Origin: a virus
Lineage: Duplodnaviria; Heunggongvirae; Uroviricota; Caudoviricetes
Virus record (IMG/VR): IMGVR_UViG_3300017691_000005
Span: 94,052-132,461 of that record
Length of the DNA stretch: 38,410 bases
Strand: one strand, 5' to 3'
In this document: piece by piece, positions 2,444 through 24,721 of the stretch
How the letters are laid out: each line of letters begins with the position of its first letter
Position numbering within the stretch: the first letter of the stretch is position 1
Program-made: the position numbers and the translations under genes
The notes under the pieces: generated by a model
The model's database searches: none
What the model was told of the DNA's origin: nothing
The model's input: only the letters and a program-made list of their open reading frames with translations

Positions 2444-3055
2444 ATGAATAGATTTTTTACAAGTGACCATCATTTCTCTCACACTAATATCATCAAACTT
2501 GCTAATAGAATGTTTGTTGACGCTGAAGAGATGAATGAGTTTATGATTGGCTATTGGAATGCCATAGTTAAACCAGAGGATATTGTTTATCATCTAGGAG
2601 ACTTTGCATTAGGACCAATTGCTGACTCTCTGCCAATGGCATCCAAACTCAATGGATATAAGGTTTTGATTCCAGGTAATCATGACCGAATCTTCAAGGG
2701 CAATAAGAAGAAAGAAATTAATAAGTTTCGAAGAAAATACGAGCAGCAATTTAATTCCATTTGGGTCAATGGCGGGGCTTTGACTATCGGTGGTATCAAT
2801 GTTCTTTTATCTCATTTTCCTTATGATTCTGATTCACATGGTGAAGATAGATATAAAGAGTATAGATTTAAAGATAATGGCATTCCGATCATCCACGGTC
2901 ATATCCATTCTAATAAAATGATTAGCAGAAGTGAAAATGGAACTTTGCAAATTCATGTCGGTGTAGATGCTCACAACTACCTACCGGTTCCTGAGAAGGA
3001 GATCTATAGTTTGATCAGACAAGAGCGTGTACAAAAGATCATGAAAACTTCTTAA
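2444..3055 (+). CDS. calcineurin-like metallophosphoesterase
   Basis: SDHH, HLGDF, GNHD, SH and HGHIH motifs in the canonical order; GAAAGGA RBS. Confidence 0.9.
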   Translation: MNRFFTSDHHFSHTNIIKLANRMFVDAEEMNEFMIGYWNAIVKPEDIVYHLGDFALGPIADSLPMASKLNGYKVLIPGNHDRIFKGNKKKEINKFRRKYEQQFNSIWVNGGALTIGGINVLLSHFPYDSDSHGEDRYKEYRFKDNGIPIIHGHIHSNKMISRSENGTLQIHVGVDAHNYLPVPEKEIYSLIRQERVQKIMKTS

Positions 3056-3114
3056 AAGATCTTGGTAGGAATCTCAAGTTAGGGGTTGTGGGGCCGATAG
3101 ATAGGGAGTAGAGT
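3053..3114 (+). promoter_or_regulatory. phage four-box promoter module
   Basis: AAAAGATCTTG, CTCAAG at 3073, CCGATA at 3094, TAGAGT at 3109; same spacing as the copies at 22.8-24.7 kb. Confidence 0.7.
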
Positions 3115-3173
3115 TCTCTACATCAAGGCAGACGGGAACGGCCCGGAAGCCACGACAAATAGGAGATATCATC

Positions 3174-3701
3174 ATGGGTGCTAAGGCTGCTGTCATCGTT
3201 ACTCCGACCGACGTTCGCGAGTGGGCCACTAAGAATGGTCACACCGTTTCCAACAGGGGTCGCCTCCACTCCACGATCATTGAGGCTTACAACAAGAGCA
3301 ACAAGGTCAAGTACGACTCCAACATCAAGCCCGACGCTGGTAGCATGGTTGCTCTGAAGGGTAAGCGTAAGACCGAGAGCGGGCGTACCGTCCCGTGGCA
3401 GAAGACGGTTTCTACTACGGAGATTCGTAGGGCTGCTCTTGAGGCCGGTATCCCGCTGGGTTCGCGTGGTCGTATTCACGCTGACGTGCTTCAGGCTTAC
3501 GCGGACAACACTCTGGCTGACCTCGCTGCTAATTGGTCTGACCGTCAGGCTAAGGCTGCTGCTGCCTCTTCTACCAGTTTTCAGATTGTCGCTATGGACT
3601 CTCTGAAGGATGATGAGCAGAGCGTTGAGGTTGAGGATGAGGGCGGGGCCGCTGTTCTTGAGGCTCCGGTCGACGGGGAGCAGACTGAGATCACGGTTTG
3701 A
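3174..3701 (+). CDS. tandem double Lsr2 DNA-binding-domain protein with acidic tail
   Basis: DVREWA..NG..VSNRGRLH..IIEAY and EIR.AA..AGIPLGSRGRIH.DVLQAY; C-terminus DDEQSVEVEDE..VDGEQTEITV. Confidence 0.85.
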   Translation: MGAKAAVIVTPTDVREWATKNGHTVSNRGRLHSTIIEAYNKSNKVKYDSNIKPDAGSMVALKGKRKTESGRTVPWQKTVSTTEIRRAALEAGIPLGSRGRIHADVLQAYADNTLADLAANWSDRQAKAAAASSTSFQIVAMDSLKDDEQSVEVEDEGGAAVLEAPVDGEQTEITV

Positions 3702-3714
3702 TTCATCAACGATG

Positions 3715-3749
3715 AGGCCACTTGACGAAAGTTGAGTGGCCTTTTCGTT
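3715..3749 (+). terminator. intrinsic terminator
   Basis: AGGCCACTTGAC-GAAA-GTTGAGTGGCCT followed by TTTCGTTT. Confidence 0.75.
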
Positions 3750-3764
3750 TACCTAAGGAGATTC

Positions 3765-4022
3765 ATGGATAAGATTGAGATTACTTCAGTAAGAGTTGGC
3801 GATACTATTATTGATTCAAACAATGAGTCAAGAACTGTAGTCGATTTTCTCGGTGACACTCATAAGTTCATTCCTAACAGTGTCGCTCTCCTTATTAAGA
3901 AGCCTGGCTATGATCCTGTAGTTGAAATTTATTGTGTACATGAAAGAGTTAACATCCACCGTTCTATTGAGGCTAGACCGTCTGGTCTACATGCACTTGA
4001 CGTAGTTGGAACGGGGGAGTAA
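3765..4022 (+). CDS. hypothetical protein
   Basis: AAGGAG RBS then ATG 3765. Confidence 0.65.
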   Translation: MDKIEITSVRVGDTIIDSNNESRTVVDFLGDTHKFIPNSVALLIKKPGYDPVVEIYCVHERVNIHRSIEARPSGLHALDVVGTGE

Positions 4023-4069
4023 GTTCTCTTACATGGACCTAGCAAGGTGTTAGGCCATAGAAAGGGATC

Positions 4070-4324
4070 ATGTCTACTCTCTCTGACGTTAGGGAATGGG
4101 CCGAAACTAAGGGGATGGATGTTGGTAAGCGTGGACGGTTAGGTAAGAATGTGATTGAAGCCTATAACAAGGCCAATCCTCGCAAGAAGTATGGCACTGA
4201 CTCTGAGCCTGTAGAGGATAAGCCTGCGCGTCCCGTTCATGATGCTATGCCGATCCACGTCACCCGCCGTCGAGAGGGGAATCGGGAGATCGTTACTCTG
4301 ATCTTTGAAGTCGATGCAGCCTAG
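4070..4324 (+). CDS. Lsr2 DNA-binding-domain-only protein
   Basis: TLSDVREWAETKGMDVGKRGRLGKNVIEAYNKAN matches the Lsr2 C-terminal domain but lies at the N-terminus. Confidence 0.85.
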   Translation: MSTLSDVREWAETKGMDVGKRGRLGKNVIEAYNKANPRKKYGTDSEPVEDKPARPVHDAMPIHVTRRREGNREIVTLIFEVDAA

Positions 4325-4335
4325 TTCAATTCGTT

Positions 4336-4379
4336 AGTAGGCCCCCACCTGTAGGCTCCGGTGGGGGCCTACTTATTTG
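4336..4379 (+). terminator. intrinsic terminator
   Basis: 14-bp stem AGTAGGCCCCCACC/GGTGGGGGCCTACT followed by TATTTGT. Confidence 0.75.
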
Positions 4380-4497
4380 TTTAGTTCTATATTTCAGATG
4401 CTTCCAATATTGATTAATCTATATTGTTGATTCTTACACATGAGTGTCAGGCAACTGTTAGTCTGAGACTACATCGAAAGCCAAACGTTCAAGGAGC

Positions 4498-4728
4498 ATG
4501 ATGTATTCCGTTCAGTCTGCTACCCAAAGAGATGTGAGCGAATGGGATGTTATCGCATCTCTTGATCCCAATAATGAAGTGTGTTCTATCTGTAGAAGCA
4601 ATGCTTTTGAGTTAAAAGACGACGTGTGTCCCTGCTGCCTTGACGACATGCTGATGCTCGCCACCGGCTGCCGGTTCGGTGAACCCGATACATGTACGCC
4701 CTACAGTCACGTTGACTGCCCTATGTGA
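4498..4728 (+). CDS. Cys-rich hypothetical protein
   Basis: AAGGAG RBS; CxxC motifs. Confidence 0.6.
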   Translation: MMYSVQSATQRDVSEWDVIASLDPNNEVCSICRSNAFELKDDVCPCCLDDMLMLATGCRFGEPDTCTPYSHVDCPM

Positions 4729-4889
4729 TGGCTAAACACCGGGCGCACAAGACGTATGGCAAGGAAGCCTCTTTAGCGGGAGCCTTTGTGTTCATTCTAA
4801 GTGGATTAGTTACGTACACATGGCTTGAATGGAATGATGTTAAGTCGTCTTTGATGATCTTGTTTGAAGTGTTGACCCGAACGGCCTAA
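4728..4889 (+). CDS. small membrane protein (MAKHRAHK...)
   Basis: 53 aa read manually; start and stop overlap both neighbours; one hydrophobic helix. Confidence 0.55.
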   Translation: MAKHRAHKTYGKEASLAGAFVFILSGLVTYTWLEWNDVKSSLMILFEVLTRTA

Positions 4890-5080
4890 TGCCCTATGTT
4901 TATCTCATACCCGCCGGAGCGGTGGGTGGACTGAAAAGAGGAATGATGTACCCCTATATCCCTAACGGTGCAACCTATCGCAATGAGAGCGACGGATTCT
5001 CCAATCCTCGTTATGATCGGAACACATTTCGTAACATGTCGCAGCGTGGACATTGGGATGATGAGGAGACAAATAACTGA
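4889..5080 (+). CDS. hypothetical protein
   Basis: TAATG translational coupling. Confidence 0.55.
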   Translation: MPYVYLIPAGAVGGLKRGMMYPYIPNGATYRNESDGFSNPRYDRNTFRNMSQRGHWDDEETNN

Positions 5081-5271
5081 TGGAGTCTGAAAATCTTCTT
5101 AAGGTTGCTGTTGGAGCACTAATCTTTTTTTCACTATGTGTGTTTGGCCTTTGGTTAGGTGCTATTTGGTCTGACACAAATGGTGAACAACTTTTTTGGA
5201 CTGGCCTTCTTTTTATTATTCCCGCTTTTATCAGTTTTCTTGTTGCTATTTTTGCGGTGGATGAAGTGTGA
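5080..5271 (+). CDS. two-helix membrane protein
   Basis: Two hydrophobic segments; GAGGAG RBS. Confidence 0.65.
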   Translation: MESENLLKVAVGALIFFSLCVFGLWLGAIWSDTNGEQLFWTGLLFIIPAFISFLVAIFAVDEV

Positions 5272-5459
5272 TGAGACCACTTCGCACTATCCATGATGCA
5301 GTTATCGGAAATAAGATGAGGATGGGTATCAGTCCTGGCGGTGTATTAGAGGGCCGGGATCTAATAAGAATTGAACTTAAAGGTTTTGGAATGCTGATGG
5401 AGATTCATGTTCCGGCTGAAGAACTCAAGGCAATTATTACTTACATTGAGGAGGGGTAA
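5268..5459 (+). CDS. small beta-beta-alpha-type hypothetical protein
   Basis: Coupled ORF; ..MEIHVPAEELKAIITYI pattern. Confidence 0.6.
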   Translation: MMRPLRTIHDAVIGNKMRMGISPGGVLEGRDLIRIELKGFGMLMEIHVPAEELKAIITYIEEG

Positions 5460-5614
5460 TGGAGAAGTTTGGTGATAACTGGATGCCAATGATTGAAATG
5501 AAAGTTTATAAAGAATATGATGGTGACAGCATTATTTTCGAAACCACAGAATCTAAATTCTATCTCTCTGGCCGTGACCGAATGCGTCTGATTGGACTAC
5601 TCTCTAATGGTTGA
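5459..5614 (+). CDS. small protein, paralogue of 6141..6341
   Basis: 51 aa read manually; FYLSGRDRMRLIGLL versus FVLSAHDRVRLIELL. Confidence 0.65.
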   Translation: MEKFGDNWMPMIEMKVYKEYDGDSIIFETTESKFYLSGRDRMRLIGLLSNG

Positions 5615-5804
5615 ACTACAAGCAACTATTAATCTTTATGGTAATGATGGAACCATCGTACAAATTTCTAAATATAGCGATTGTCCCGATTTTTATCTCA
5701 CCGTCGAAACCGCAGAGGGTACTACTTCAGAATTTCTATCGACTCAAACACTAAACACCTTTGCTTTCAAGTTGAACAATATTATGAAAGATTATGATGC
5801 TTGA
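5592..5804 (+). CDS. small beta-beta-alpha-type hypothetical protein
   Basis: ORF track; the true start may be ATG 5604-5610. Confidence 0.6.
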   Translation: MDYSLMVELQATINLYGNDGTIVQISKYSDCPDFYLTVETAEGTTSEFLSTQTLNTFAFKLNNIMKDYDA

Positions 5805-6114
5805 TGAATTCGGCCTAACTCCCGAGCAACGGGCACAGCATCTTGCAGATGCTCGTAAACAATTGGCTCTCAATGCCAAGCGCAATAGGGGATATGCAAG
5901 TATTCCTATTGATACTGACGACGAAGAGTTAGTGCTGCGATGGAAGATGCTTAAGGACAAATTAGATAGAGAAATGGAGCGGATTCGTGAAGATGCGATT
6001 GCTAGAAATAACCGACAGCCTACTACACCGCATATATGTAGCCCTGTATCAGATTCTCCCCGAGAGAGTAATAGAGGGCTTGTGGCAAAGATCCGGCGCT
6101 TCCTGGGTCTGTGA
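5794..6114 (+). CDS. hypothetical protein
   Basis: 106-aa helical ORF in a coupled operon. Confidence 0.65.
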   Translation: MMLDEFGLTPEQRAQHLADARKQLALNAKRNRGYASIPIDTDDEELVLRWKMLKDKLDREMERIREDAIARNNRQPTTPHICSPVSDSPRESNRGLVAKIRRFLGL

Positions 6115-6140
6115 CAAATACGACGCTACGATGACGGAGG

Positions 6141-6341
6141 ATGATGATGTTTGATTTTACTGACGCGCATTTCATTGATGCGGAACTGCCAGAAGTAAAT
6201 CTTTATCTTGCTCTTGATGATGACGTAAATGGTTCATATAAAATTCTTATTAGAGGCCCCATCCATGCCGCCGCTTTTGTTCTCTCTGCACACGACAGGG
6301 TGCGTCTTATTGAATTGCTGGGAGGAACTGATGCAACTTGA
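6141..6341 (+). CDS. small protein, paralogue of 5459..5614
   Basis: GGAGG RBS; shared F.LS..DR.RLI.LL. Confidence 0.65.
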   Translation: MMMFDFTDAHFIDAELPEVNLYLALDDDVNGSYKILIRGPIHAAAFVLSAHDRVRLIELLGGTDAT

Positions 6342-6488
6342 TAAGGATACGGTGAGGCATCTAGCGGCTATTGCAAGAGTCTGGCCTTTTGGTGTAGACG
6401 ATCATTATTGGCAGCGACATGAAAAGACGGACTTTAGTAATTGGCTCCTTGAGCAAATTGGAGAGACAAATGCTGATGAATATTACAA

Positions 6489-6692
6489 GTGGCCTACAAA
6501 ATGATTGAAATGTGGAGTGACCCCAACTTTCCCGGTGAGCCCAATGTTAGTATCGATCTAGAGCCTGACGGCTCTATTGATCTCACGGGGTTTGCAGATC
6601 CGGGTGATGTTTTTGCAGTCGATGAGCAAAGTGATGGCAGTATTCTTCTTACTCCCGTTCTAGGACCAAAGACTAAGGAGTGGCATGCCTGA
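6489..6692 (+). CDS. acidic hypothetical protein, possibly AbrB-like beta-rich
   Basis: PGDVFAVDEQSDGSILLTPV resembles a swapped-hairpin motif (weak). Confidence 0.45.
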   Translation: MAYKMIEMWSDPNFPGEPNVSIDLEPDGSIDLTGFADPGDVFAVDEQSDGSILLTPVLGPKTKEWHA

Positions 6693-6867
6693 GGAAAAGG
6701 TTCTCAAAATTGAAGATCAGTTTTTCAACAGCACTAGTGTAGTATTTATTCAAACTATTACTGATATGCTTTTTATTTCTGTGAATGAGGGCGATAGCAA
6801 ATTAACTGTAATTCTTAATGAAAATGATGTTGAGCGTATTCGTGACTTTTTGAAGAATTGGGATTAA
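6685..6867 (+). CDS. small beta-beta-alpha-type hypothetical protein
   Basis: AAGGAG RBS; LTVILNENDVERIRDFL. Confidence 0.65.
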   Translation: MPEEKVLKIEDQFFNSTSVVFIQTITDMLFISVNEGDSKLTVILNENDVERIRDFLKNWD

Positions 6868-7040
6868 TGATAATCAGCCTAGAACTTAGACGACGGATAG
6901 AAAATCTTGCAGAAAACCTTGAAGGTCACGCCGGGCATCTGCTACAGTCTCCATTCAACATCAACAAGCAACTTGATGCAGCCGCTCCATATAATGCTAT
7001 TGCATGGGAATTGAGGCAACTCTTGATTAATGATGAGTAA
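6858..7040 (+). CDS. hypothetical protein
   Basis: Coupled ORF. Confidence 0.55.
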   Translation: MGLMIISLELRRRIENLAENLEGHAGHLLQSPFNINKQLDAAAPYNAIAWELRQLLINDE

Positions 7041-7195
7041 TATACCTATTGCATACCACAGCGCATATCCAAGTGAAGAAGACAATACAGTTTGTTGTTT
7101 CTGTCATGAAGATATTTACAGGACAAAATATGGTCCGGGGTTCAGTTTTACTTACTATTGTCATATCTCTGAGATACAGGAATTGGAGAGTTTCA

Positions 7196-7453
7196 TTGTC
7201 TAATTACCCACCAGGGAGTATGCGTGGTTCTGGTATTTATCAAACTGAAATGATGATTGATGTCAAATGCGATGCCGAGTTTGAACTCGGTAATAGTAGA
7301 CACTACGCAGCATGTGTTTATGAGGGTACAGTAGAGGGTATTGTCAATGATTATGGAACATCAGGTTATTGGGAATGCCCGGTGTGCGGCTCCACCTATG
7401 ATTTTGATGTAAGTGACTATAAAGACGAATATTATTATGAGGAAAAGGATTAA
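7196..7453 (+). CDS. hypothetical Zn-ribbon protein
   Basis: GGAG RBS then TTG 7196 (MSNYPPGSM...); WECPVCG. Confidence 0.65.
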   Translation: MSNYPPGSMRGSGIYQTEMMIDVKCDAEFELGNSRHYAACVYEGTVEGIVNDYGTSGYWECPVCGSTYDFDVSDYKDEYYYEEKD

Positions 7454-7594
7454 TGCCTGATGATAAGTACCGTAAAGCCGTTAGTGCTGTTCTAGATCTT
7501 TGTCAAAGCGCAGACACTTATGGTGAAAATGAATGGGCTAATACTGTTCTTACCGGTGAAGTACGTCATGCAATTTTGCTAGCATTGGAGAATA

Positions 7595-7807
7595 ATGCTT
7601 GAAGAACTTTTAGATAAAAGACCTAGTATTAGAAAGATTCAAGAAGATCTCAAAGAGTTAGAGCCTGCTCTTGATATTCTTATCATTGCTTTGTCTGATT
7701 ATAGAGATGAACATCTACAATTTTTTATTGATCGACTTGACGACACACAGCATGAAGAGTTGTTAGAAGCAATTGCTGACATTTATGTAAGGATGACTCG
7801 TGACTGA
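7595..7807 (+). CDS. acidic helical hypothetical protein
   Basis: GGAG RBS. Confidence 0.65.
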   Translation: MLEELLDKRPSIRKIQEDLKELEPALDILIIALSDYRDEHLQFFIDRLDDTQHEELLEAIADIYVRMTRD

Positions 7808-8033
7808 TTTTAGTGAATATTTTGTTCACAAAATGAACATGAGAACTGAGATTAATACTTATTGGCCTAGGGGTTGGCAAATCTTTCGTAAGAGATGCAC
7901 TGCTCGATTAGAAAGAAACGAAACAGGGTTTTATGGACGTTGTGATTTTATGGTCCACCCCCGGGATGTTGACCATTATATAGAGCGAGGTCTTATGGAA
8001 ATTCGATTTAAAACAGAGATTACGGGTGTTTAA
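7800..8033 (+). CDS. hypothetical protein
   Basis: Coupled ORF. Confidence 0.55.
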   Translation: MTDFSEYFVHKMNMRTEINTYWPRGWQIFRKRCTARLERNETGFYGRCDFMVHPRDVDHYIERGLMEIRFKTEITGV

Positions 8034-8270
8034 ATGAATAAATGTTTAGGTATCTTTGGTTTTATCTTTGGTCATAAGTATGTAAAGATTGTTGGTTTTG
8101 AATATATATATCGAAGCGATAATTGTTTTCGATGTGGAAAACAGGCGGGATCGTGATCATTCACACACTGCCCGTTAATGATCTTATTGAACATGTTGAA
8201 GATAATTGTTTATGTGGACCTAACATAGAACCGGCGGGGTCTGGTTTTGTTGTTATTCATCACAGTCTAG

Positions 8271-8549
8271 ATGGAAGAGAAAGATATGAATGATAAATAT
8301 GAAAAACTATCTGACTATTTCGCAGAAGGATTTACACCTATGAATCCACAGGATCAGGCTCGTCATAATTTTTTGGACGCTAATGGTATTTATTTTGATT
8401 CTCCTAACTACGATCTTTTTACAGAAGCATTTGATAGTGGTTATACAAAAGGTAGACTAGACGGTAGCGTTCATGGTGCTGATGAAGGATACAAGAAAGG
8501 TTATGAGAATGGATTTAATGCAGGTGCTCACTGGGCAAAGGAATATTAA
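8271..8549 (+). CDS. GxxxG-repeat (Yae1/FliH-like) protein
   Basis: AFDSGYTKGRLDG..GADEGYKKGYENGFNAG. Confidence 0.65.
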   Translation: MEEKDMNDKYEKLSDYFAEGFTPMNPQDQARHNFLDANGIYFDSPNYDLFTEAFDSGYTKGRLDGSVHGADEGYKKGYENGFNAGAHWAKEY

Positions 8550-8749
8550 TGGGTGACAAGATTAAGAAATTATTCAATGAGTATTTTGACACATCAATTT
8601 GGACTAACCATACAAAAGAGTTTCAAATTTCAGATTTAGAGCATGCATACCGAGCGGGATTTAATAAGGGTCGAGAATATGGTTATAGTGACGGTTACGA
8701 TGAGGGTTTGGATCATGGTATGGAACAATCTCTAGGTCTAGATGCTTAA
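8549..8749 (+). CDS. GxxxG-repeat (Yae1/FliH-like) protein
   Basis: AYRAGFNKGREYGYSDGYDEGLDHG. Confidence 0.65.
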   Translation: MGDKIKKLFNEYFDTSIWTNHTKEFQISDLEHAYRAGFNKGREYGYSDGYDEGLDHGMEQSLGLDA

Positions 8750-8800
8750 GGTCTGGCTTCACCCATCCGATAGATAGGTAACAACCTACTAGGAGGAAAC

Positions 8801-9100
8801 ATGCGAGTCGTTCTGTACATTGTTGGCCTGTTCGTTGCTGGTGTCATGATGATTGCTACTGCTGTCCCGGCAAATGCTATTGGCCTTGAGAATCAGATCA
8901 AGATCAATACCGCCGCTGTTAAGGTGGCTGATAAGTCTTGTGGGAAGTGGCAGTCTAAGATGAGTAATGCAAAGAAGGATTGCCGTTTTAAGACGCTTAA
9001 GAAGAATGGTTATATTGCGCTGTATGATCTTTCTGATCTTCCTGTTGTCTCTCGCCTGGCTCCCTACGCCCCGCCCGTGTCTGACTCCCGAGCCGTCTGA
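8801..9100 (+). CDS. putative secreted protein
   Basis: AGGAGG RBS; signal peptide ending in PANA; preceded by a partial promoter module (CTTAAG 8745, CCGATA 8767). Confidence 0.7.
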   Translation: MRVVLYIVGLFVAGVMMIATAVPANAIGLENQIKINTAAVKVADKSCGKWQSKMSNAKKDCRFKTLKKNGYIALYDLSDLPVVSRLAPYAPPVSDSRAV

Positions 9101-9106
9101 AAATTA

Positions 9107-9149
9107 GCCCCCGTGTCCTCTTGACCAGGACACGGGGGCGCTTTAGTAT
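9107..9149 (+). promoter_or_regulatory. 13-bp hairpin overlapping a sigma70-type promoter
   Basis: GCCCCCGTGTCCT-CTTGACC-AGGACACGGGGGC; TTGACC (9121)-17 bp-TAGTAT (9144). Confidence 0.65.
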
Positions 9150-9176
9150 TGACCTACAGCAGCCGATACAGGAGGC

Positions 9177-9419
9177 ATGACGATGTGTAGAGACCACGGC
9201 AAGCGCCGTAAGCACAATTGCTCCGCCTGGCATCGTGCGCTGATGGAGGCTTACTACGATGCGAGGAACCGCCAGGAAATGCGGGCGGAAGAGTACAGCA
9301 TTGGGTATGCTACTGAACTGAAGCAGTTTTACACAGAAGTTGAGTCTAAGATCACTTTTAAGTTCTTCCTTTCTAATTGGCGGTTCTACATGTCTTATGA
9401 GCAGGAGATGGCAGCATGA
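9177..9419 (+). CDS. hypothetical phage protein
   Basis: CAGGAGG RBS; H.C..WHRAL..AY..AR..QE motif. Confidence 0.75.
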   Translation: MTMCRDHGKRRKHNCSAWHRALMEAYYDARNRQEMRAEEYSIGYATELKQFYTEVESKITFKFFLSNWRFYMSYEQEMAA

Positions 9420-13181: not shown

Positions 13182-13690
13182 CTAGAACCATCCTTGGTGG
13201 GCAAGGGGATACACATGCATTGCCCGAGGCTTTACAGGCCGAACCTGTACCGGGAAAAAGAAGTGACCTATGAATATCCGAGTCACATGAATCTATTATC
13301 AATAGGGCAACACGGGTCGCCTGTCCTATATTATGCGATGAGTAATAGATATATGCCGCGATACGGAACGTAATTCCTCCGTCTTGGAAACCTCACTATA
13401 CAGATGTTTCTAAAGTCTTTGTTAGGCTTTAGTTTGCCTTCAACCAGATTAAGTCAAAAAATTAAATCTATTATTTTAAAGTTGATATTTCAGTAAAGAC
13501 ATTGACTCTAATAAAACATACTTATAAGGCTATAAATGAATTTTATTGTAGTTCTCAAATAGTTTCTAAAAATCTCATTGATTTCAAAAATCTCACTAGA
13601 AAACTAAACAGTGTAAAAATCTCACTCCATCGTAACCTGTTCGTTACATACAGGGCTAAAGGTCTCTCTCCTAGGGACGATAAGTAATGC

Positions 13691-14104
13691 ATGAACAACA
13701 CTACTGAGCCAGTCACCGCAACGATGATGAAGGAGATGATGAACGGCACTAATGAGACTGCTCTTGTGCGCTATCCTGACGGTTCTCTGGGTGTTATTCG
13801 TCATCTTTCTCTTGAACTTCCTGATATCCCCGATGATGTAGAGGTGCTTCGTTACCCTGCAAAGCCGTGGGCGGGTGATCTCATTAAGGCCGCTCGTGAG
13901 GTGGCTCGTAAGGACGGAAAGTCTGAGCATCTTGCAACGCTTAAGAAGAAGGCTATTGAGTGGGCTAATGATGAGATTAAGGAGGATGAGAAGCGCATGG
14001 GTTTTCGGATTCCTCCGGATATGATGGGGGCTCGCTCTCTCAGCCGGACGGAAATGCGAATCTGGATGGAGATTATCGAGCGCCTAATTCCTCTGATGCC
14101 GTAA
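13691..14104 (+). CDS. hypothetical protein with candidate -1 frameshift extension to 14451
   Basis: 137-aa ORF; slippery G GGT TTT at 13999-14005. Confidence 0.75.
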   Translation: MNNTTEPVTATMMKEMMNGTNETALVRYPDGSLGVIRHLSLELPDIPDDVEVLRYPAKPWAGDLIKAAREVARKDGKSEHLATLKKKAIEWANDEIKEDEKRMGFRIPPDMMGARSLSRTEMRIWMEIIERLIPLMP

Positions 14105-14788: not shown

Positions 14789-15497
14789 TACAAATTCATG
14801 ATCTTGCATAGTCAAATGTCCTGACAAAGTGCCATTGGATCATGAAAACTGTAGTTTGATCTAAGTATTGACCAGCGGAAATGCACGCTGAGACACGAAC
14901 GCACCCTAGATGGCATCCCGATGCCAAACCGGGCCCCTAGGGGCTCCCAGGGCCCCTACAGGGCCTCATATGGGCCGCATAGCCATGCATGGCGGGTGGG
15001 AGCGGGTGCAGCATAGAAACGATCTTGAAAATGGTTGAGCGTTCAATGGTTGTATGTTCAATAGTTGCAATACACAACTACCTAGAGATCAATCTAGATA
15101 GAAGGAATGCGCGTGCGCGCGAGTACCACAGACTCAAGATCAATTGTGGCAGACACGTCGTCCCCCTGTGTCCCCCAAAGTAGGGACACGACACGTTGCT
15201 CAAGATGGTTCCAACTAGACCCGATACCGGTAATGTTCTTCTCATCACCCCGGGGAGCGGCTGAGAGGCAGGGCTCCGGAGAGTGACCGATACGCACCAG
15301 ACCTCAACTACATAGATTCGCCCCGAGTGTACGGGTGCCCGACCATTGCGCCTAGCAATGCGGAAAGCACCTACACTATCCGATCCGCAAAAACGGACGG
15401 GTAAGGCAGAGTAGGGAGCGGATATGCGATATGCGAAAAGCTTCATTTGATCTTGATTGAATGGCTTTTTACATATCGGGAGAGATTGGAAAGTGAA

Positions 15498-16214: not shown

Positions 16215-16306
16215 CCTAGGTCACGCTGACAACTTCCGGCGTGTCGCTCACGTTCGCGTGGCAAATGCCGATAGATTGGTGTCACCAGCACAGAGGAGAG
16301 GGAAAA

Positions 16307-16645: not shown

Positions 16646-16713
16646 CATGATTGAGACTACTTACTCTGACATTGTGAATGACTATCTTGATTCGATGATT
16701 TGGGGTGACGGCA

Positions 16714-17984: not shown

Positions 17985-18020
17985 TACAGGCCCTGTAAGG
18001 GGTCTAGGACGCTCTAGAGG

Positions 18021-18051
18021 GGTGGGGCCGGTACTCACTACCGGCCCCACC
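18021..18051. repeat. GC-rich 13-bp hairpin preceding a promoter module
   Basis: GGTGGGGCCGGTA-CTCAC-TACCGGCCCCACC. Confidence 0.75.
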
Positions 18052-18073
18052 GGCCCAGGCCCTTAGGCTCAAG

Positions 18074-18136
18074 AAAAAAACTTTTCAAGATTGTTTAAGG
18101 TTTTGAGGGTTAGGGCCGATGGGATGGGGGTAACCT
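18074..18136 (+). promoter_or_regulatory. phage four-box promoter module (degenerate)
   Basis: A-tract/ACTTTT 18080, TTTAAG 18094, CCGAT 18116, TAACCT 18131. Confidence 0.55.
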
Positions 18137-18280
18137 ACTCGACAGAGAGGCCGGAACGATGGCAACCAAGATCCGCCGTTGTGAGTTCGGATGGAATTGC
18201 AACCGAATTGCATTCCGGATGATTAACGGAATTTTCACTTGCAAGACTTGTCACGCTCACTCAACTAAGGGAGTCAAGCG

Positions 18281-18577
18281 ATGATTTCCACGAATAACGT
18301 CCCCCGCCCCGTTATTGACGCATACGAATTGACTGCAAGTGAGCGCGCCAAATTTGATTATCTTGATTGGAACCGAATTGAAATCGGTGAGGATTCCGCT
18401 AGTTTCTTTCGGTACCGTGACAGCCTTTATGATTTGGGCGACGCGCAACGCATTACTGAGACAATGACTAGCCTTTCCGGTTGGCATGGTTTTTATGGTG
18501 AGAGTTATTTTAGCGCCGTTGTGTTCCGTTATTCTGACGATTTTGAGCATGTCACTGTCGGACACTGGACGGAGTGA
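18281..18577 (+). CDS. acidic hypothetical early protein
   Basis: AAGGGAG RBS; TN..PR..YELT..E..FDYLD..FFRY..YDL motif. Confidence 0.75.
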   Translation: MISTNNVPRPVIDAYELTASERAKFDYLDWNRIEIGEDSASFFRYRDSLYDLGDAQRITETMTSLSGWHGFYGESYFSAVVFRYSDDFEHVTVGHWTE

Positions 18578-18933
18578 ACAAAATGAATACCGACACGGTT
18601 TGCTTTACATGCGGATTCTGGCCGAATACCGATAACCTCACAATTGCGGAGCAGGAGCATCGTGCATTTGATGGGGCGCATTACCCTAATTGGGTTGAGG
18701 ATTCTCTCTGAGTAGTTAGTGGCTTTCGGTTTAGTCGGGTCGACTCATACTCCCCGACTACTCCGTGAATTACTAAACACAACCGAGAGGAATTGACATG
18801 TTCAAGGTCGTTAACGAATTCGGCGAGGATGCATCCGATTTCCTTGTGAACGCTCTTAGTGATGCTGACCTCAAGTGTCCTAGCCCGTGGTACTTCCCGC
18901 TTTACACCCTTGAGATTGTAGAGGAGAACTGAA

Positions 18934-19290
18934 ATGACTATCTCTTACATTCCCGGCGGGAAGTACGATTCGGCCCGGGACGTATTTCTTGATTACATGG
19001 TCAGCCAGGGATGGGCAAATGAGTCTGGCGGTGACGTGGAGTCTAATGCTGGACATTTTGCCATTATCAAGAATCCCCCGGCGGAAGTCACTGAGATTGC
19101 CAATGCTTTTGATGATGAAATGCGGTCCCTTAACGTTTTCCGATCCGACATTATCGGATACTTTGTTCTCCACACTGACTCACAGGGTTTTGTCAGCGTG
19201 CATGCTTTTGAGACTGAGACAGCCGCTGAGATTGTTTATGCCGAGTATGAGCGTGAGTACTCCGATTGGCTGATGGCTACGGGAGCCTAA
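18934..19290 (+). CDS. acidic hypothetical early protein
   Basis: GAGGAG RBS. Confidence 0.75.
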   Translation: MTISYIPGGKYDSARDVFLDYMVSQGWANESGGDVESNAGHFAIIKNPPAEVTEIANAFDDEMRSLNVFRSDIIGYFVLHTDSQGFVSVHAFETETAAEIVYAEYEREYSDWLMATGA

Positions 19291-19348
19291 AGGTTCTAGC
19301 GTTTCTTGCCGATAGATAGTTATCACCCACTAGCGATTGGATAGAATC

Positions 19349-19654
19349 ATGGCTGGCACCGCGAATATCCCCCTTACCTACATCCACAAGGGTATTAAGC
19401 GCCGTACCCACATTACTGCCACCCATAAGGGAGGTTCTTACATCGATCTTTCTTTCGGCGGGGCTCACCCGTCAGAGGTAATTAACGTCTGGGACCACCA
19501 GGCCGGTAAGTCTAGGCTTACAGGTAAGCGCGGGGAAGTTAAGGCCATCCTTACTGAGTGGATTAAGGATGAGGACGATTACGAGCGGTCTTATCAGGAT
19601 GAAGGGGATAAGTTTAACCGCAATTGGCTTCGTCTTTACGTTGAGAATTCCTGA
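19349..19654 (+). CDS. hypothetical early protein
   Basis: Downstream of a partial promoter module (CTAAAG 19287, CCGATA 19309). Confidence 0.7.
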   Translation: MAGTANIPLTYIHKGIKRRTHITATHKGGSYIDLSFGGAHPSEVINVWDHQAGKSRLTGKRGEVKAILTEWIKDEDDYERSYQDEGDKFNRNWLRLYVENS

Positions 19655-19730
19655 CTTAGTGTGATTGGGTTAGCAATAGACATAGCGCTATTGCTTTCCT
19701 TGCTTCACTAATTCATCCACTACTCACAGA

Positions 19731-20093
19731 ATGGATATCATCATGATTGCTACCGTCGATAACCTGGACGCAATTACCATTTTTGATATTGCTTTTGAGG
19801 TTAGTGAGAATCATGATGTGAGCACGCGCATGGACGTTTATACTCCCGCCATTCTTGATGGTGAGATTGACTCTGACAATTGGGAGTTTTTCTCTGACGG
19901 TTATACGGGCCAGTACGGTTACAGTGGCCCGATTATGCATGACAGCGAGTACATCGGCGGAATGCTTGCGGAGGACATTCTGAATGAGCCTGGCATTTAT
20001 GTTGTCGTCGCCGCTATGTATTCCCCCAAGAATGACAATGATGAGTTTGTCTGGGAGGGTTGGGCTGTCCTCCGTTACGTCGGAAAGGATTGA
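19731..20093 (+). CDS. strongly acidic hypothetical early protein
   Basis: 120 aa, D/E-rich; GYTGQYGYSGPIMH.SEYIGG motif. Confidence 0.75.
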   Translation: MDIIMIATVDNLDAITIFDIAFEVSENHDVSTRMDVYTPAILDGEIDSDNWEFFSDGYTGQYGYSGPIMHDSEYIGGMLAEDILNEPGIYVVVAAMYSPKNDNDEFVWEGWAVLRYVGKD

Positions 20094-20281
20094 TTATCAT
20101 GGATGCTCCCCGTACTCGCGCAATGATTCTGAAGTCTCTTACTGAGAATATCGAATACATCTTTATGGGTAATGCTTCCATCGGTAAGGATGATTATGCT
20201 CGACTTGACGCCCTTACTCACGAGTTTGAGACATTGACGCGAGATATTCAGACTGCCCGTCAGCGGCGGGGCCGGTAAGGT

Positions 20282-20392
20282 ATGCGTATTCTTTTCGGTC
20301 CAGCCATCATCTACGGTTTCTTTATCTTTTGTGTCATCATTCTTCCTATTATTCTCGGTGCTATTTTCATTCACACGCTGATGACAGGATGA
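20282..20392 (+). CDS. 36-aa membrane peptide
   Basis: Almost entirely hydrophobic; TAAGG RBS. Confidence 0.5.
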   Translation: MRILFGPAIIYGFFIFCVIILPIILGAIFIHTLMTG

Positions 20393-20890
20393 GCAATGCC
20401 TACTGAAGTTAAGGAAATTCTTATGGCTGCTCTTGATTATGCGTTCGCCACTCATTCGATTACCGATAGCGAGCACCTGACCGCATATGTTTATCTTGAG
20501 GAGAACTGAAATGATTGAGGCTTTCAATTCTGCTATTGATGCTGACCATTCTCTTGCTTTTGTTATGAATCACATTATCAATGGACAGAATAGGAGAAAG
20601 GATAGGGAATTCACTAAGTCTCTTGACAGCCTGGCCGACCGGCTGGGCCTCTAGGATCGACGCAGAGCCTCTAAGGGGGGCCGCCAGGCCCCACGGGTCC
20701 AGCGGCCCCCTTGCTCGCGTTACAGAGCCCTACAGAGCCTCACAAAAAATCTTGAAAAAGTTTGTGTGTTTGGCTTGAGTTTGACCACTGCGTGCCCGAA
20801 GATACATACATGAACCCCCGGCGTGTCGCAGGACGCGCCGGGGCCCGATCGGCTAGGTTCTACTCATTCAATCTCGTGGAGGTTATTGAA

Positions 20891-21133
20891 ATGGCTAGCG
20901 CTCGACCTGACATGCGTGACTATTTCCGTGCTCGCATTGACTTTCATGTCAATGGTATTTTTTCTAGGAACACGCGACTTCCCTCTGGTGTTCGCAAGAT
21001 CATCGGTGACGTTACTAGTCGAGAAATTGTCGTCATTATGGATGATGGCACGACGCACAATTATTCTGGCGGTCGATACGCGGAGCGGAAGCGAAATGGT
21101 TGTTACGCTCCGCTTATGCCTCGCCCCGCTTGA
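20891..21133 (+). CDS. hypothetical protein
   Basis: GGAGG RBS then ATG 20891. Confidence 0.6.
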   Translation: MASARPDMRDYFRARIDFHVNGIFSRNTRLPSGVRKIIGDVTSREIVVIMDDGTTHNYSGGRYAERKRNGCYAPLMPRPA

Positions 21134-21355
21134 TTTAGTGTCATTGCCTTTCCCAATAACCGGCGGTTATTGGGATTGGTTGTGATCCTAACTCTGGGAT
21201 TCCCGAATGAGAGGATATTAAAATGTCTTTCGCTTCCTACCTCGCTGAAAACAAGACTCGCCTTGCCAGTGAGGCTAAAAATCCTCGCGCAATTGTGAGC
21301 AAGCCTGTTCACGTCATTTCGGCTCACGGCGTTTCTACCATTAAGGGGAAGTGAA

Positions 21356-21574
21356 ATGAAGCGACTCAACTTCAAGACTGACGGTAGGTCAGGACAGCAT
21401 GTCGCAAGCAATAGTGATTACTACGTTGTGATTACTTGGGTCGGAAATGCTTTTGAAGTTGAGCACACCATGCGCCTCCCGGGTCGTTCAATTTTTTATG
21501 GGTGGACGACTGTTGTTTATCGCAATTCTTACCGCGCCGCCGTTAGTGCAGCCGTCCGAATGTCTAGGGGGTAA
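21356..21574 (+). CDS. hypothetical protein
   Basis: AAGGGG RBS. Confidence 0.65.
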   Translation: MKRLNFKTDGRSGQHVASNSDYYVVITWVGNAFEVEHTMRLPGRSIFYGWTTVVYRNSYRAAVSAAVRMSRG

Positions 21575-21576
21575 TT

Positions 21577-21756
21577 GTGGCTAATTATCGAATTGATAAG
21601 GATAGTACCGGTAAGGCTTATGCGCGGATCGGTACTCACGAGAATGGTGAGAGGTTTTACATTAGTATTGTTGACGGCGGTAAGTCTGCAAGTATTGTCA
21701 TTGACCGTCACGATTTTCTTGAGACTATCCGCACGATTCTTGAGGAGAACGACTAA
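21577..21756 (+). CDS. small beta-rich protein, paralogue 1 of 3
   Basis: Read manually: ..ASIVIDRHDFLETIRTIL. Confidence 0.65.
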   Translation: MANYRIDKDSTGKAYARIGTHENGERFYISIVDGGKSASIVIDRHDFLETIRTILEEND

Positions 21757-21947
21757 TGGCTACGGCATATCGACTCAACAGTGAAAGCCCTCACGGATTT
21801 GTTATGGCCTCTCAATCTAATAATGGGAAGACTGTTACTGTTTTTCTGCAAGAGGCTGATGAGGCGGAGCATCACGCTACTGTGACTTTTGACACCGCCG
21901 ATTTCCTCAAGTACATGACTACTCTGCTCAAGAATTGGGGGAAGTAA
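21756..21947 (+). CDS. small beta-rich protein, paralogue 2 of 3
   Basis: ..ATVTFDTADFLKYMTTLL. Confidence 0.7.
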   Translation: MATAYRLNSESPHGFVMASQSNNGKTVTVFLQEADEAEHHATVTFDTADFLKYMTTLLKNWGK

Positions 21948-22154
21948 ATGTACAACGATATTATTGGTATTTTTGAGGACATTCACAGCAATAAAATGAC
22001 CGTGACGGTTTTTGAAGACGATCAGTATGTTTACCTTGATATTGAGACTGCAAGCGGAGTTGTTGGGGACTCAATTGCATTTGACGCCGACACCTTTCTT
22101 AAGTTTGCCGATACTGTTGCTGAGATTGCTAAGACGATTAGGGAGAACGGCTGA
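21948..22154 (+). CDS. small beta-rich protein, paralogue 3 of 3
   Basis: ..DSIAFDADTFLKFADTVA. Confidence 0.7.
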   Translation: MYNDIIGIFEDIHSNKMTVTVFEDDQYVYLDIETASGVVGDSIAFDADTFLKFADTVAEIAKTIRENG

Positions 22155-22432
22155 TGACTACTCGCGTTTATGTCGAGTTTGACAATGATGATTACGCAGC
22201 CCGCTTTCTTTATGACCTTTCGGTGGGTTTGCTTAAGCATGTTACCGACAGCGGTTATCTTGAGGAGGACTAATGCGATACGTGGTCGTTAATGTCGTTG
22301 ACGATATTGTGTATTCAAAGACCTGGAAGGGTGAAAACTTTACAGAATATCAGGCGCAGAATTTTTGCACGATTAACAATTCACGTTACCCGGCTGACTC
22401 CCCGCGCCTTTTCGTTTTTGAGCGGGTGTCTA

Positions 22433-22528
22433 ATGCTTGACTTCACTGATGACATTACTGATGACGACATGATTAATTATGACCGGGATTCTTTTGTGGA
22501 GGACTATTGGGATGAACTGGCTTTTTGA
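22433..22528 (+). CDS. 31-aa very acidic peptide
   Basis: TAATG coupling; 12 D/E residues and 1 R. Confidence 0.5.
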   Translation: MLDFTDDITDDDMINYDRDSFVEDYWDELAF

Positions 22529-22707
22529 ACTACTCGGTATTGATAGGGAATGCGACTGTGAAGACGACGACAACGATTGGGGATGGTTCTAATGGACGAT
22601 TTCACTACAGTTACTGTCTACTTTGATAGTGCAGAGAGTGCGAGCAACTTTTACGACAACGTTCTACCGAATATGAAGGGATTTATTGAGGCGCATATCT
22701 CCTGACC

Positions 22708-22742
22708 AGTAACCGGCCCTAATTGGGCCGGTTACTTTTTTT
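22708..22742 (+). terminator. intrinsic terminator
   Basis: AGTAACCGGCCC-TAATT-GGGCCGGTTACT followed by a T-run. Confidence 0.85.
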
Positions 22743-22819
22743 GGACAAAAATGGTTGCTTGCGGCAAACAATCACACATGTCATGACATACGGATAACTT
22801 CATGATCCACAATCAATCT

Positions 22820-22879
22820 AAAAAATCTTGGAACACACCTCAAGAAACGGGGTTAGGAAGCCGATACTTAGGGCATACT
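22820..22879 (+). promoter_or_regulatory. phage four-box promoter module
   Basis: ATCTTG 22825, CTCAAG 22839, CCGATA 22861, CATACT 22874. Confidence 0.7.
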
Positions 22880-22917
22880 AGAGACACAAGGGCAGGGACT
22901 CACAAGGGAGAGAGATC

Positions 22918-23253
22918 ATGGCAAAGTGTGAGCGTTGCGGCTCCACCGATGTGAGGTGGGCAGAGTCAAAGACGACCGGTAAGCCCTATCTTCAGGACAC
23001 CGTTAACTGGACCGGTGAGCGCTACGCTGTTTCTCGGACCTACGGGCGTGGTCCTCACTTCAAGACGTGTGAGTCCCGCCAGCGGATGAATGCCGAGTAC
23101 ATGAAGACACTTCGGGCCAGTACTGCTGATCGAATTGCCGCCCGGTACACATTGACCGTCGTTATTCCTCTGAGCATGGCGGGTGACGTCGACACGGCAA
23201 TTCGATGCATGGAAAAGGTTCCGGCGTGGCGAGAGGGTTTCATTAACCGATGA
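22918..23253 (+). CDS. hypothetical protein with N-terminal CxxC
   Basis: GGGAG RBS; CERCG..V.WA.SK..GK.YL. Confidence 0.7.
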   Translation: MAKCERCGSTDVRWAESKTTGKPYLQDTVNWTGERYAVSRTYGRGPHFKTCESRQRMNAEYMKTLRASTADRIAARYTLTVVIPLSMAGDVDTAIRCMEKVPAWREGFINR

Positions 23254-23258
23254 TCTTG

Positions 23259-23286
23259 GGTAGGGCCGCCTACGGGCGGCCCTACC
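23259..23286. repeat. 12-bp GC hairpin with TACG loop
   Basis: GGTAGGGCCGCC-TACG-GGCGGCCCTACC. Confidence 0.8.
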
Positions 23287-23294
23287 GGGAGGCT

Positions 23295-23354
23295 AAAAAA
23301 TCTTGGAAAACGCTTACAGGAAATCCACAATCTTGCCGATACCTAGAGTAGAGT
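23295..23354 (+). promoter_or_regulatory. phage four-box promoter module
   Basis: ATCTTG 23300, TTACAG 23314, CCGATA 23336, TAGAGT 23349. Confidence 0.7.
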
Positions 23355-23377
23355 GAAGCCATCACCTAGAGAGAGGG

Positions 23378-23584
23378 ATGATCGTGTACAAGATCAAGAC
23401 CGTTGAGGCCGGATATGCTCGCGTTGAGGTTGACGGTGTTGTAATTGGCACAATGACGCGAGACGATTTCACGGGATTTTGGCGGTGTAAGATGACTAAT
23501 GGTTATGCTGTTGGTAGTGGCGACACTCGAAAGTTGGCTGCTGAAAAGATGTTTGCAATGCACGAGCGTTTTCAGCGCGGTTGA
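23378..23584 (+). CDS. hypothetical protein
   Basis: GAGGG RBS. Confidence 0.7.
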   Translation: MIVYKIKTVEAGYARVEVDGVVIGTMTRDDFTGFWRCKMTNGYAVGSGDTRKLAAEKMFAMHERFQRG

Positions 23585-24140
23585 TATCCATATCTATTAG
23601 AGAGGAATGACCATGAACGGATACATTTACTGCGATTTTACAGAACGGTTTGAGCGTATCGGTGCAGACGAGATTGATAAGCCGTTCTGTACCGGATGCC
23701 GTGTTGATATTGACGCATATGGTGAGCACCCCTGATATTAGCAATTGGCCCCCGGTAATTCGGCCGGGGGCCGGTGGATGAGAAAGGATATCGATATGTC
23801 TAATGATGTGTGGCGTACAGACGCTAAATGTCATTGCGGAGATAATGTCGTTGTTCGTTTTCAGTGGAATGGATTTACGCGCGGTTTATGTGAACATTGT
23901 GACGATGTTAGGTGTGATGCATATCCGGGGGAGTGCGGACGATAATGGCACAAACAATGGAATGCCCTAAGTGTGAAGGGGAGGGAAAGATCAAACGATT
24001 TACACAATGGGATAACGGCCGGTGTTTTAACTGTAGAGGAACAGGCAGTGTAGTCATTACCAAGATCAAGAAGAAACTACCTGTTAGTTAGTCGATTAGA
24101 TTTACTAACTACGATCATGAACCAAGATCAACAACAATCT

Positions 24141-24200
24141 AAAAAATCATGAACAGAAACCTCAAAGATGGGGCTCTAACGACGATTGATCCTGTAGAGT
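24141..24200 (+). promoter_or_regulatory. phage four-box promoter module
   Basis: ATCATG 24146, CTCAAA 24161, ACGATT 24182, TAGAGT 24195. Confidence 0.65.
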
Positions 24201-24237
24201 CGTCCTAAGACGAAACCACAACGGAGGAGAAGGAACC

Positions 24238-24618
24238 ATGACCAGCACCGACTACATGATCAAGCCCGCTACTGTGGGTTTCACCGTGACGCACGTTCCT
24301 ACCGGGATCATGGACGTTTTCGATCTTCGTTCGCTTTGTGAGCGTTGGATCTCCCGTCACGCTGAAATGGTCACCACCCCCGTTGTGGCACCTGTGCAGG
24401 CGCCTAAGGGGCTCACCATTGGTAAGGCTGCTGAGATGGGTCTAGACGGTACTGATGGTGCGTGGGTGGTGGTGTGTGAGGACCACAACACGATCGTTAA
24501 TGTCCGTACTCGCAAGGATGCGCGGACTGTGACTGGTGTTGACTTCTGTGATGGGTGCCGGGGTGACGATGAGATCATGCCGTGTGGGTGCGTTGAGGGT
24601 TTCTGCTACTGCGATTGA
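24238..24618 (+). CDS. hypothetical protein with C-terminal Cys cluster
   Basis: AAGGA RBS; CEDH..FCDGC..CGC..C.C. Confidence 0.7.
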   Translation: MTSTDYMIKPATVGFTVTHVPTGIMDVFDLRSLCERWISRHAEMVTTPVVAPVQAPKGLTIGKAAEMGLDGTDGAWVVVCEDHNTIVNVRTRKDARTVTGVDFCDGCRGDDEIMPCGCVEGFCYCD

Positions 24619-24627
24619 TTATCCTTA

Positions 24628-24653
24628 GGCCCCGCCCCTACGGGGGCGGGGCC
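24628..24653. repeat. 11-bp GC hairpin with TACG loop
   Basis: GGCCCCGCCCC-TACG-GGGGCGGGGCC. Confidence 0.8.
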
Positions 24654-24661
24654 GGTGGGGT

Positions 24662-24721
24662 AAAAGATCATGCAACACACCTCAAGGAATCACCATTAGA
24701 GGTCGATACATAGGGTAGAGT
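24662..24721 (+). promoter_or_regulatory. phage four-box promoter module
   Basis: ATCATG 24667, CTCAAG 24681, TCGATA 24703, TAGAGT 24716. Confidence 0.7.

Follow-up and report, generated by a model that had tools for sequence, protein, structure and literature searches.

What kind of promoter is represented by a short module of four boxes that recurs before small genes in the last part of a large phage genome, and what would read it? The module lies in the window analysed here, the stretch of 38,410 nucleotides at positions 94,052 to 132,461 of IMG/VR record IMGVR_UViG_3300017691_000005, which forms the final 38.4 kb of a 132,461-bp tailed-phage genome rated complete by CheckV. A sequence-only reading had divided the module into an A-tract-bearing box 1, a CTCAAG-like box 2, a CCGATA-like box 3 and a -10-like hexamer, box 4, and had proposed a distinct class of promoter. 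The analysis reported here indicates that the module is probably a promoter of the sigma-28 family (FliA/SigD/actinobacterial WhiG), in which box 2, (C)T(C/A/T)AAG, would be the -35 element and box 3, (G)CCGATA(G/C), the extended -10. The elements do appear to be promoters that differ from the TTGAC-N17-TANNNT promoters of the same phage, as had been proposed; the claim of a new four-box class falls, since boxes 2 and 3 match the -35 and extended -10 of a class that is itself textbook.

The unit, T(C/A/T)AA-N15/16-(G)CCGATA(G/C), has 12 credible copies. All are on the plus strand; 11 lie in the window and the other lies 608 nt upstream of it. One further copy is doubtful. The predicted promoters are listed below in window positions unless stated otherwise, with the spacer in brackets, counted from the T(A/C)AA tetramer to the -10 8-mer.

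Record positions 93,402-93,466, 608-649 nt before the window, plus strand: full four-box copy, found by motif search.
1668..1703, plus strand: doubtful copy, CACAAA-N15-GGGGATAG, with 4 mismatches and the CGA core missing.
3053..3108, plus strand: full module; box 1 TAAAAGATCTTG at 3053-3064, overlapping the phosphoesterase stop codon; -35 CTCAAG at 3073-3078; -10 GCCGATAG at 3093-3100 (N15); predicted start ~3108; double-Lsr2 gene 3174-3701 downstream.
8745..8781, plus strand: site; -35 CTTAAG at 8745-8750; -10 TCCGATAG at 8766-8773 (N16); predicted start ~8781, with a predicted 20-nt leader containing AGGAGG before gene 8801-9100.
13656..13691, plus strand: site; -35 CTAAAG at 13656-13661; -10 GACGATAA at 13676-13683 (N15); open reading frame (ORF) 13691-14104, predicted to be leaderless.
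15199..15235, plus strand: site; -35 CTCAAG at 15199-15204; -10 CCCGATAC at 15220-15227 (N16).
16247..16282, plus strand: site; -35 CTCACG at 16247-16252; -10 GCCGATAG at 16267-16274 (N15); then a 28-codon ORF, 16307-16393, and genes up to DUF932 (16947-17984).
18072..18130, plus strand: full module; inverted box-1-like sequence at 18072-18093; -35 TTTAAG at 18094-18099; -10 GCCGATGG at 18115-18122 (N16); gene 18159-18284, encoding a 41-aa Cys-rich protein.
19287..19323, plus strand: site; -35 CTAAAG at 19287-19292; -10 GCCGATAG at 19308-19315 (N16); gene start ~19349.
22819..22875, plus strand: full module; box 1 at 22819-22830; -35 CTCAAG at 22839-22844; -10 GCCGATAC at 22860-22867 (N16); predicted start A22875; gene 22918-23253.
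23294..23350, plus strand: full module; box 1 at 23294-23305; -35 TACA at 23315-23318; -10 GCCGATAC at 23335-23342 (N16); predicted start A23350; gene 23378-23584.
24140..24196, plus strand: full module; box 1 at 24140-24151; -35 CTCAAA at 24161-24166; -10 GACGATTG at 24181-24188 (N15); predicted start A24196; gene 24238-24618.
24661..24717, plus strand: full module; box 1 at 24661-24672; -35 CTCAAG at 24681-24686; -10 GTCGATAC at 24702-24709 (N16); predicted start A24717; gene 24762-24956.

All six full copies reported earlier are present where they had been placed (3059, 18080, 22825, 23300, 24146 and 24667). Among the partial ones, those at 8745, 16247 and 19287 are real, and that at 1668 is weak. 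Three further copies had gone unlisted, namely 13656/13676, 15199/15220 and the full copy upstream of the window. When each full copy was left out in turn, nhmmer recovered 3059, 22825, 23300 and 24667 at E <= 1e-4 and 24146 only at E = 0.07; copy 18080, whose poor box 1 is an inverted copy of that box, was not recovered. With up to one mismatch, CTCAAG was found at the reported spacing from CGAT[AGT] 12 times on the plus strand and never on the minus strand, and 10 of these 12 matches fall in a single 25-kb block, from 608 nt before the window to 24,703. Nine of the 12 credible copies lie between 13.6 and 24.8 kb, in a G+C-richer stretch.

Recent duplication, as judged by long repeats, was considered as a source of the copies and rejected. 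What the copies have in common are boxes of 12-26 nt and no long repeats, and their similarity is therefore at the motif level. The longer near-identical stretch reported at 22803 and 24125 is present.

The match to sigma-28 promoters is seen in both boxes and in the distance between them. The general sigma-28 consensus has TAAA at -35 and GCCGATAA at -10 (PMC8325347), and in the open complex on Pseudomonas aeruginosa fliC the sequences TCTAAAG and GCCGATAA occupy -36..-30 and -15..-8, respectively (PMC12784957). For the actinobacterial factors, consensus sequences T(A/C)AA-N16-GCCGATAA (WhiG2) and CTCA-N16/17-GCCGAACT (WhiG1) have been described, with an invariant CGA and three variable final bases in the -10 (PMC12871210). 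Across the 13 phage sites, the -35 tetramer has T, A and A at its conserved positions in 12 sites each, followed by G in 11 and preceded by C in 10, so that the extended form CT-AAG is matched as well. The -10 counts are G10, C9, C12, G13, A13, T13 and A10. CGAT is found in all sites except the doubtful one at 1688, GC precedes it in most, and the final base is G or C, at a position reported as variable. The two boxes are rigidly spaced, 21-22 nt from start to start in 13 of 13 sites, with a spacer of N16 in eight and N15 in five and no other value; N16 is the spacer of Streptomyces WhiG promoters, as opposed to N15 for true flagellar sigmas (PMC7005675).

The phage sites resemble the promoters of FliA, SigD and WhiG, including the WhiG targets whiH, whiI and vnz15005, in a -35 of the form T(A/C)AA(G) and a GCCGATA with invariant CGA, and most of them share the N16 of the Streptomyces promoters (N15-16 overall). 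They differ from known sigma-28 systems in being phage-borne, about 12 in 25 kb, and placed before small genes, an Lsr2-like gene and a DUF932 operon; in a last -10 base of G or C instead of A; in the long conserved A-tract box upstream; and in that no cognate sigma or anti-sigma gene was found nearby in the phage. In S. venezuelae, only three WhiG targets were found (PMC7005675).

The pattern is also enriched over random expectation. An a-priori query derived from the literature, T[AC]AA-N15/16-GCCGATA, in which up to one mismatch was allowed outside CGA, gave 8 plus-strand matches, as against 1.73 +/- 1.32 in 300 first-order random genomes; six of them were in the 25.5-kb block, where 0.33 were expected (Poisson 1.4e-6). 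A looser published query applied to 123 upstream regions gave 6 matches, compared with 1.67 +/- 1.27, a number reached by 0.6% of shuffles.

Conservation in relatives gives a further line of evidence. The phage itself is uncultured and distantly related to the large lytic Streptomyces phages, since its portal protein shows 52-53% identity to the portals of Mildred21 (Stanwilliamsviridae) and other Streptomyces phages of cluster BE, it carries Lsr2-like, DUF932 and WhiB genes, and it shares with Mildred21 the synteny of rIIA/phosphoesterase and ThyX. No nucleotide relatives of the window were found in the cultured-phage collection, and IMG/VR held no useful relatives of the proteins of the 24238 and 22918 genes. 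Four related metagenome contigs were obtained from a metagenome scan with DUF932 (L097, 90% identical in this protein, and L098, 81%) and from a look-up of Lsr2 homologues (L114, 80% identical in Lsr2, and L115, 65%).

Orthologous promoters are present in all four contigs. Comparison of nine orthologous pairs gave identities of 81% for the -35 tetramer and 90% for the first seven -10 bases, as against 49% for the spacer and 56% for the seven bases that follow the -10. A three-way alignment of the 16267 site with its L097 and L098 counterparts shows retention of the two boxes around a replaced spacer, whose length changes from N15 to N16. The L098 counterpart of the 19308 site likewise keeps both boxes; 10 of 12 spacer positions differ, and a 25-nt insertion follows the -10 directly, where a principal-sigma -10 would have to be. 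The sites orthologous to the 3053 module keep GCCGATAG in L114 and L115, the L097 orthologue of the 15220 site is GCCGATAC, and L097 also holds an orthologue of the 18072 module. A perfect TAAA-N16-GCCGATAA occurs twice, at L098 7619 (orthologue of 23335, with box 1) and at L114 211 (orthologue of the copy before the window).

With box 3 as an extended -10, transcription would start 7 nt after the GCCGATAN 8-mer, the 8-mer occupying -15..-8, and thus inside box 4, which would fall at -2..+4 of the predicted transcript. In three genes an ATG stands exactly 7 nt after the 8-mer: ORF 13691-14104, the L098 orthologue of the 24238 gene and L115 4112. The second of these has ACCGATAC in the L098 orthologue of the 24140 module, with the ATG 7 nt later, and the N-terminus of its product aligns with that of the window protein. 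Chance is an unlikely source of three such leaderless coincidences among about 22 sites, and leaderless mRNAs are common in Actinomycetota. The other sites have predicted leaders of 20-66 nt that include a ribosome-binding site, and 10 of 12 predicted starts are purines.

The earlier proposal placed the start elsewhere. In it, box 4 (TAGAGT, TAACCT or CATACT) would serve as a principal-sigma -10 that lacks a -35 and is assisted by a dimeric activator on an inverted repeat of boxes 1 and 2 near -50 and by a contact at CCGATA near -23. A weaker variant of this model would make the full copies dual promoters, in which an HrdB-type start that uses the -10 alone lies 11-13 nt beyond the sigma-28-type one. 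We regard this model, in either form, as unlikely. In its favour, TAGAGT is found exactly in four full copies, serves as a -10 together with TTGACA in the relative Mildred21, fits the TANNNT rule of actinobacterial promoters, and stands at the same distance from box 1 as the -10 of the canonical promoter at 366. Also borne out are the lack of a TTGAC 16-18 bp ahead of the -10-like hexamers and the earlier description of canonical promoters at 366, 9121 and 13042. The hexamer does not, however, behave as a -10 at a fixed distance. Its offset from box 3 is +8, +10, +13 or +15, and it is unconserved in orthologues, including those of 16267 and 19308, one of which has the 25-nt insertion at this place. 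Furthermore, the Shine-Dalgarno sequences of 8766 and 16267 begin 24 nt after CCGATA and would be truncated in transcripts that begin 5-8 nt beyond a hexamer at +13..+18. The rigid mutual spacing of boxes 2 and 3, the variable distance from box 3 to TANNNT and the position of these Shine-Dalgarno sequences together argue for boxes 2 and 3 as the unit.

The inverted repeat on which the activator would sit fares no better. CTTG-N10-CAAG is present only at 3059 and 22825, and with N12 in the copy before the window, so that at most 2-3 of the 7 full copies have it; it is absent from four full copies and lost in the L098 orthologues. The spacing between box 1 and box 2 is also inconstant, being 14-16 nt in the window and 27 nt in L098, and box 1 stands 25-32 nt from the -35 of canonical promoters. 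The dimeric factor at -50 with its contact at -23 is therefore not upheld: the repeat is unconserved, and boxes 2 and 3 correspond to the -35 and -10 of sigma-28 promoters.

What box 1 contributes to the putative sigma-28-type promoter can be approached from its distribution. Its consensus is TAAAA(A/G)ATC(T/A)TG(G/A)AA, and the shorter form TAAAA(A/G)ATC(T/A)TG has 11 copies on the plus strand and 3 on the minus strand. Six copies of box 1 occupy about -57 to -40 relative to the predicted start. It is not specific to the sigma-28-type core, because it is also present before the canonical promoter at 366, the first of two such occurrences.

335..393, plus strand: box 1 AAAAGATCTTGAAA at 335-348, 25 nt before a canonical TTGACG-N17-TAAGTT promoter.
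20744..20786, plus strand: second box 1, AAAAAATCTTGAAAAAG, before TTGAG/TTGACC hexamers, with no CCGATA box.

Box 1 shares with UP elements, the sites of the C-terminal domain of the alpha subunit at about -60 to -40, its A-richness and, in six copies, a fitting position. It differs from them in a longer and more specific conserved stretch, in a spacing that, among the other copies, shifts by roughly one helical turn, and in its inversion at 18080. Most likely it is an A-tract, UP-like element or a bend, which may also serve as a cassette joint, and it would not be half of an activator site. A box-1-like AAAAAATCTTGAAC followed by a strong terminator hairpin with a T-tract was also seen on the minus strand at 25430-25530; both lie inside the called ORF 25341-25730, a call that may be wrong.

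As to the factor that would read the sigma-28-type sites, the likeliest candidate is a host sigma-28-family factor, which in Streptomyces would be WhiG, because no recognisable sigma gene was found in the phage or its relatives. Searches of all six frames of the phage with the Sigma70_r2, r4, r4_2 and FliA_WhiG models returned no sigma gene and only a weak r4_2-like helix-turn-helix in a 62-aa frame; the same profile search found the WhiB gene, which served as a control. Neither did a scan of 39 mid-size ORFs with Pfam or PHROGs give a sigma match, nor was a sigma gene found in Mildred21 and five large near-complete IMG/VR relatives. No enzymes of cyclic di-GMP (c-di-GMP) metabolism (EAL, GGDEF) were found in the phage. 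In S. venezuelae, WhiG is present at all stages and sequestered by RsiG with c-di-GMP (PMC7005675), and WhiG homologues are widespread in Actinomycetota (PMC12871210). Two loci outside the window may encode transcription modulators: a WhiB-family gene at record positions 87691-87861 (E 1e-10), and the 62-aa frame at 50327-50401, with its weak sigma-70 region-4-like helix-turn-helix (E 0.006).

Phage genes would, on this assignment, be tied to the activity of the host factor. A tentative extension, which we hold possible and well short of probable, is that a sigma-less large lytic phage of the Streptomyces type has wired about 12 genes (Lsr2-like, DUF932 and small orphans) to a host sigma-28-family factor, in Streptomyces the sporulation sigma WhiG controlled by c-di-GMP and RsiG, so that they would be expressed only when the factor is free. 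The phage might then either read the developmental or motility state of its host, or free the sequestered sigma through an anti-anti-sigma and use it as a second-stage sigma.

The same core might instead be read by a highly divergent phage-encoded sigma or by a sigma-remodelling protein, forming a phage-timed (middle) class independent of host WhiG/FliA. Many phage ORFs belong to no known family and leave room for such a protein. Nevertheless, one would expect regions 2 and 4 to be retained in any protein that reads canonical sigma-28 boxes, and the blank result of the four models in six frames, together with the lack of a sigma among the unassigned mid-size ORFs given to PHROGs, makes this improbable.

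Least credible, and by a wide measure improbable, is that the CCGATAGATAGG-type boxes are one-orientation operators at which a phage DNA-binding protein would act, comparable to the stoperators of L5-type mycobacteriophages, or -10 boxes of extracytoplasmic function (ECF) sigmas, some of which contain CGAT: the box is indeed asymmetric, about 12 nt long, multi-copy, intergenic and in a single orientation, but it always comes with T(A/C)AAG at a rigid -35 spacing, both boxes covary with the sigma-28 consensus down to the G after TAAA and the GC before CGATA, the AAC-type ECF -35 is missing, the three leaderless starts fit a -10 function, and the bases after CCGATA are poorly conserved between orthologues (56%). 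An ECF assignment with CTCAAG as an AAC-type -35 and CGAT as the -10 had been tried in its own right and was dropped, the full 12-position match being to sigma-28.

Several observations weigh against the sigma-28 assignment or limit its reach. The commonest -35 is TCAA, not TAAA, and several sites (8766, 18115 and 24181) have three mismatches. Genome-wide, the loose published query is just modestly enriched, with 22 matches against 14.9 +/- 3.6. In 20 more distant IMG/VR relatives and Mildred21 the pattern occurs at chance level, and the trait therefore appears confined to a narrow lineage. Given the use of TAGAGT in Mildred21, initiation at the full copies could also come from a principal-sigma promoter that has a -10 only. 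An Actinomycetota host is suggested only by the kinship with Streptomyces phages (portal 53%) and the WhiB and Lsr2 genes; the GH6 gene, considered as a host hint, had no close relative among bacterial genomes. Finally, dependence on a normally sequestered sigma would be puzzling if the block is an early or first-injected module.

The promoters appear to be part of a larger arrangement. The sites would form a regulon, as had been proposed. It would comprise the double-Lsr2 gene and a set of cassettes that mostly hold one gene and are bounded by hairpins. Four of the modules are preceded by the following hairpins.

18021..18051, plus strand: G+C hairpin of 13 bp without a T-tract (-33.9 kcal/mol, z -3.6), directly before module 18080; a terminator-like cassette boundary.
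22708..22736, plus strand: canonical intrinsic terminator with a 12-bp stem and T7, ~85 nt before module 22825.
23259..23286, plus strand: G+C hairpin of 12 bp without a T-tract (-30.1 kcal/mol), directly before module 23300.
24628..24653, plus strand: G+C hairpin of 11 bp without a T-tract (-31 kcal/mol), directly before module 24667.

Cassette order differs in one relative. In L098 6840-7818, compared with window 23250-24760, the 24238-like gene precedes the 23378-like cassette and the 22918 gene is absent, with the rearrangement breakpoints at hairpin/promoter modules and the cassette joint within the module. This single rearrangement, and it only, suggests that recombination may occur at the module. 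An analogy with the promoter-early stem-loop (PeSL) cassettes of T4-type phages, drawn earlier, is thus apt in part: in both, a stem-loop and a promoter bound single small genes, and the hairpin and promoter would act as a cassette joint. PeSL promoters, however, are sigma-70 early promoters, whereas the core in this phage is sigma-28-type and lacks TTGAC at 16-18 bp. A further parallel in layout is offered by the terminal repeats of Mildred21, a phage of the same family (portal 53% identity), whose cassettes consist of single small genes, including an Lsr2-like gene, each with a G+C hairpin and its own promoter ~120 nt upstream. There, in contrast, the promoters are TGnTAGACT or TTGACA-N17-TAGAGT, a GTCCGG..CCGGAC palindrome is present and sigma-28-type sites are not above chance.

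Some further features were recorded along the way. Nearly all terminal-repeat cassettes of Mildred21 (positions 1-10000, minus strand) consist of a hairpin, a GTCCGG(N2-4)CCGGAC palindrome and a TGnTAGACT extended -10, a layout that looks like an operator-controlled early promoter family. In the window, genes run on the plus strand to 24,956 and on the minus strand past ~25,300, and the two blocks converge on an A+T-rich gap of 216 nt (24957-25172). No canonical TTGAC-N16-18-TANNNT promoter was found on the plus strand of the window after 13042; the stretch 13500-24800, with a G+C content of 48-50% as against ~41%, appears to rely on sigma-28-type sites alone. The 15220 site is followed by ~210 nt without a convincing ORF (15235-15446), 80% identical in L097, which could be a long leader or a small RNA; it had no Rfam match, and an Rfam search of the whole window returned no family. 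The 28-codon ORF 16307-16393, directly 3' of the 16267 promoter, is hydrophobic and has a strong ribosome-binding site; ORF calling had joined it to a longer GTG frame.

What is unusual here is the setting: about 12 sigma-28-type promoters stand before small genes in a large phage of the Streptomyces type, in which no sigma gene of its own could be recognised. A search of a library of papers found none on sigma-28- or WhiG-type promoters in actinophages. The set offers about 12 compact natural promoters of predicted WhiG/FliA type, with their conserved and free positions mapped. If a host sigma-28-family factor reads these sites, the phage would possess a regulon tied to a host alternative sigma. 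In Streptomyces this would be the c-di-GMP-switched sigma of sporulation. Through a regulon of this kind, phage gene expression would be linked to the development or motility of the host.

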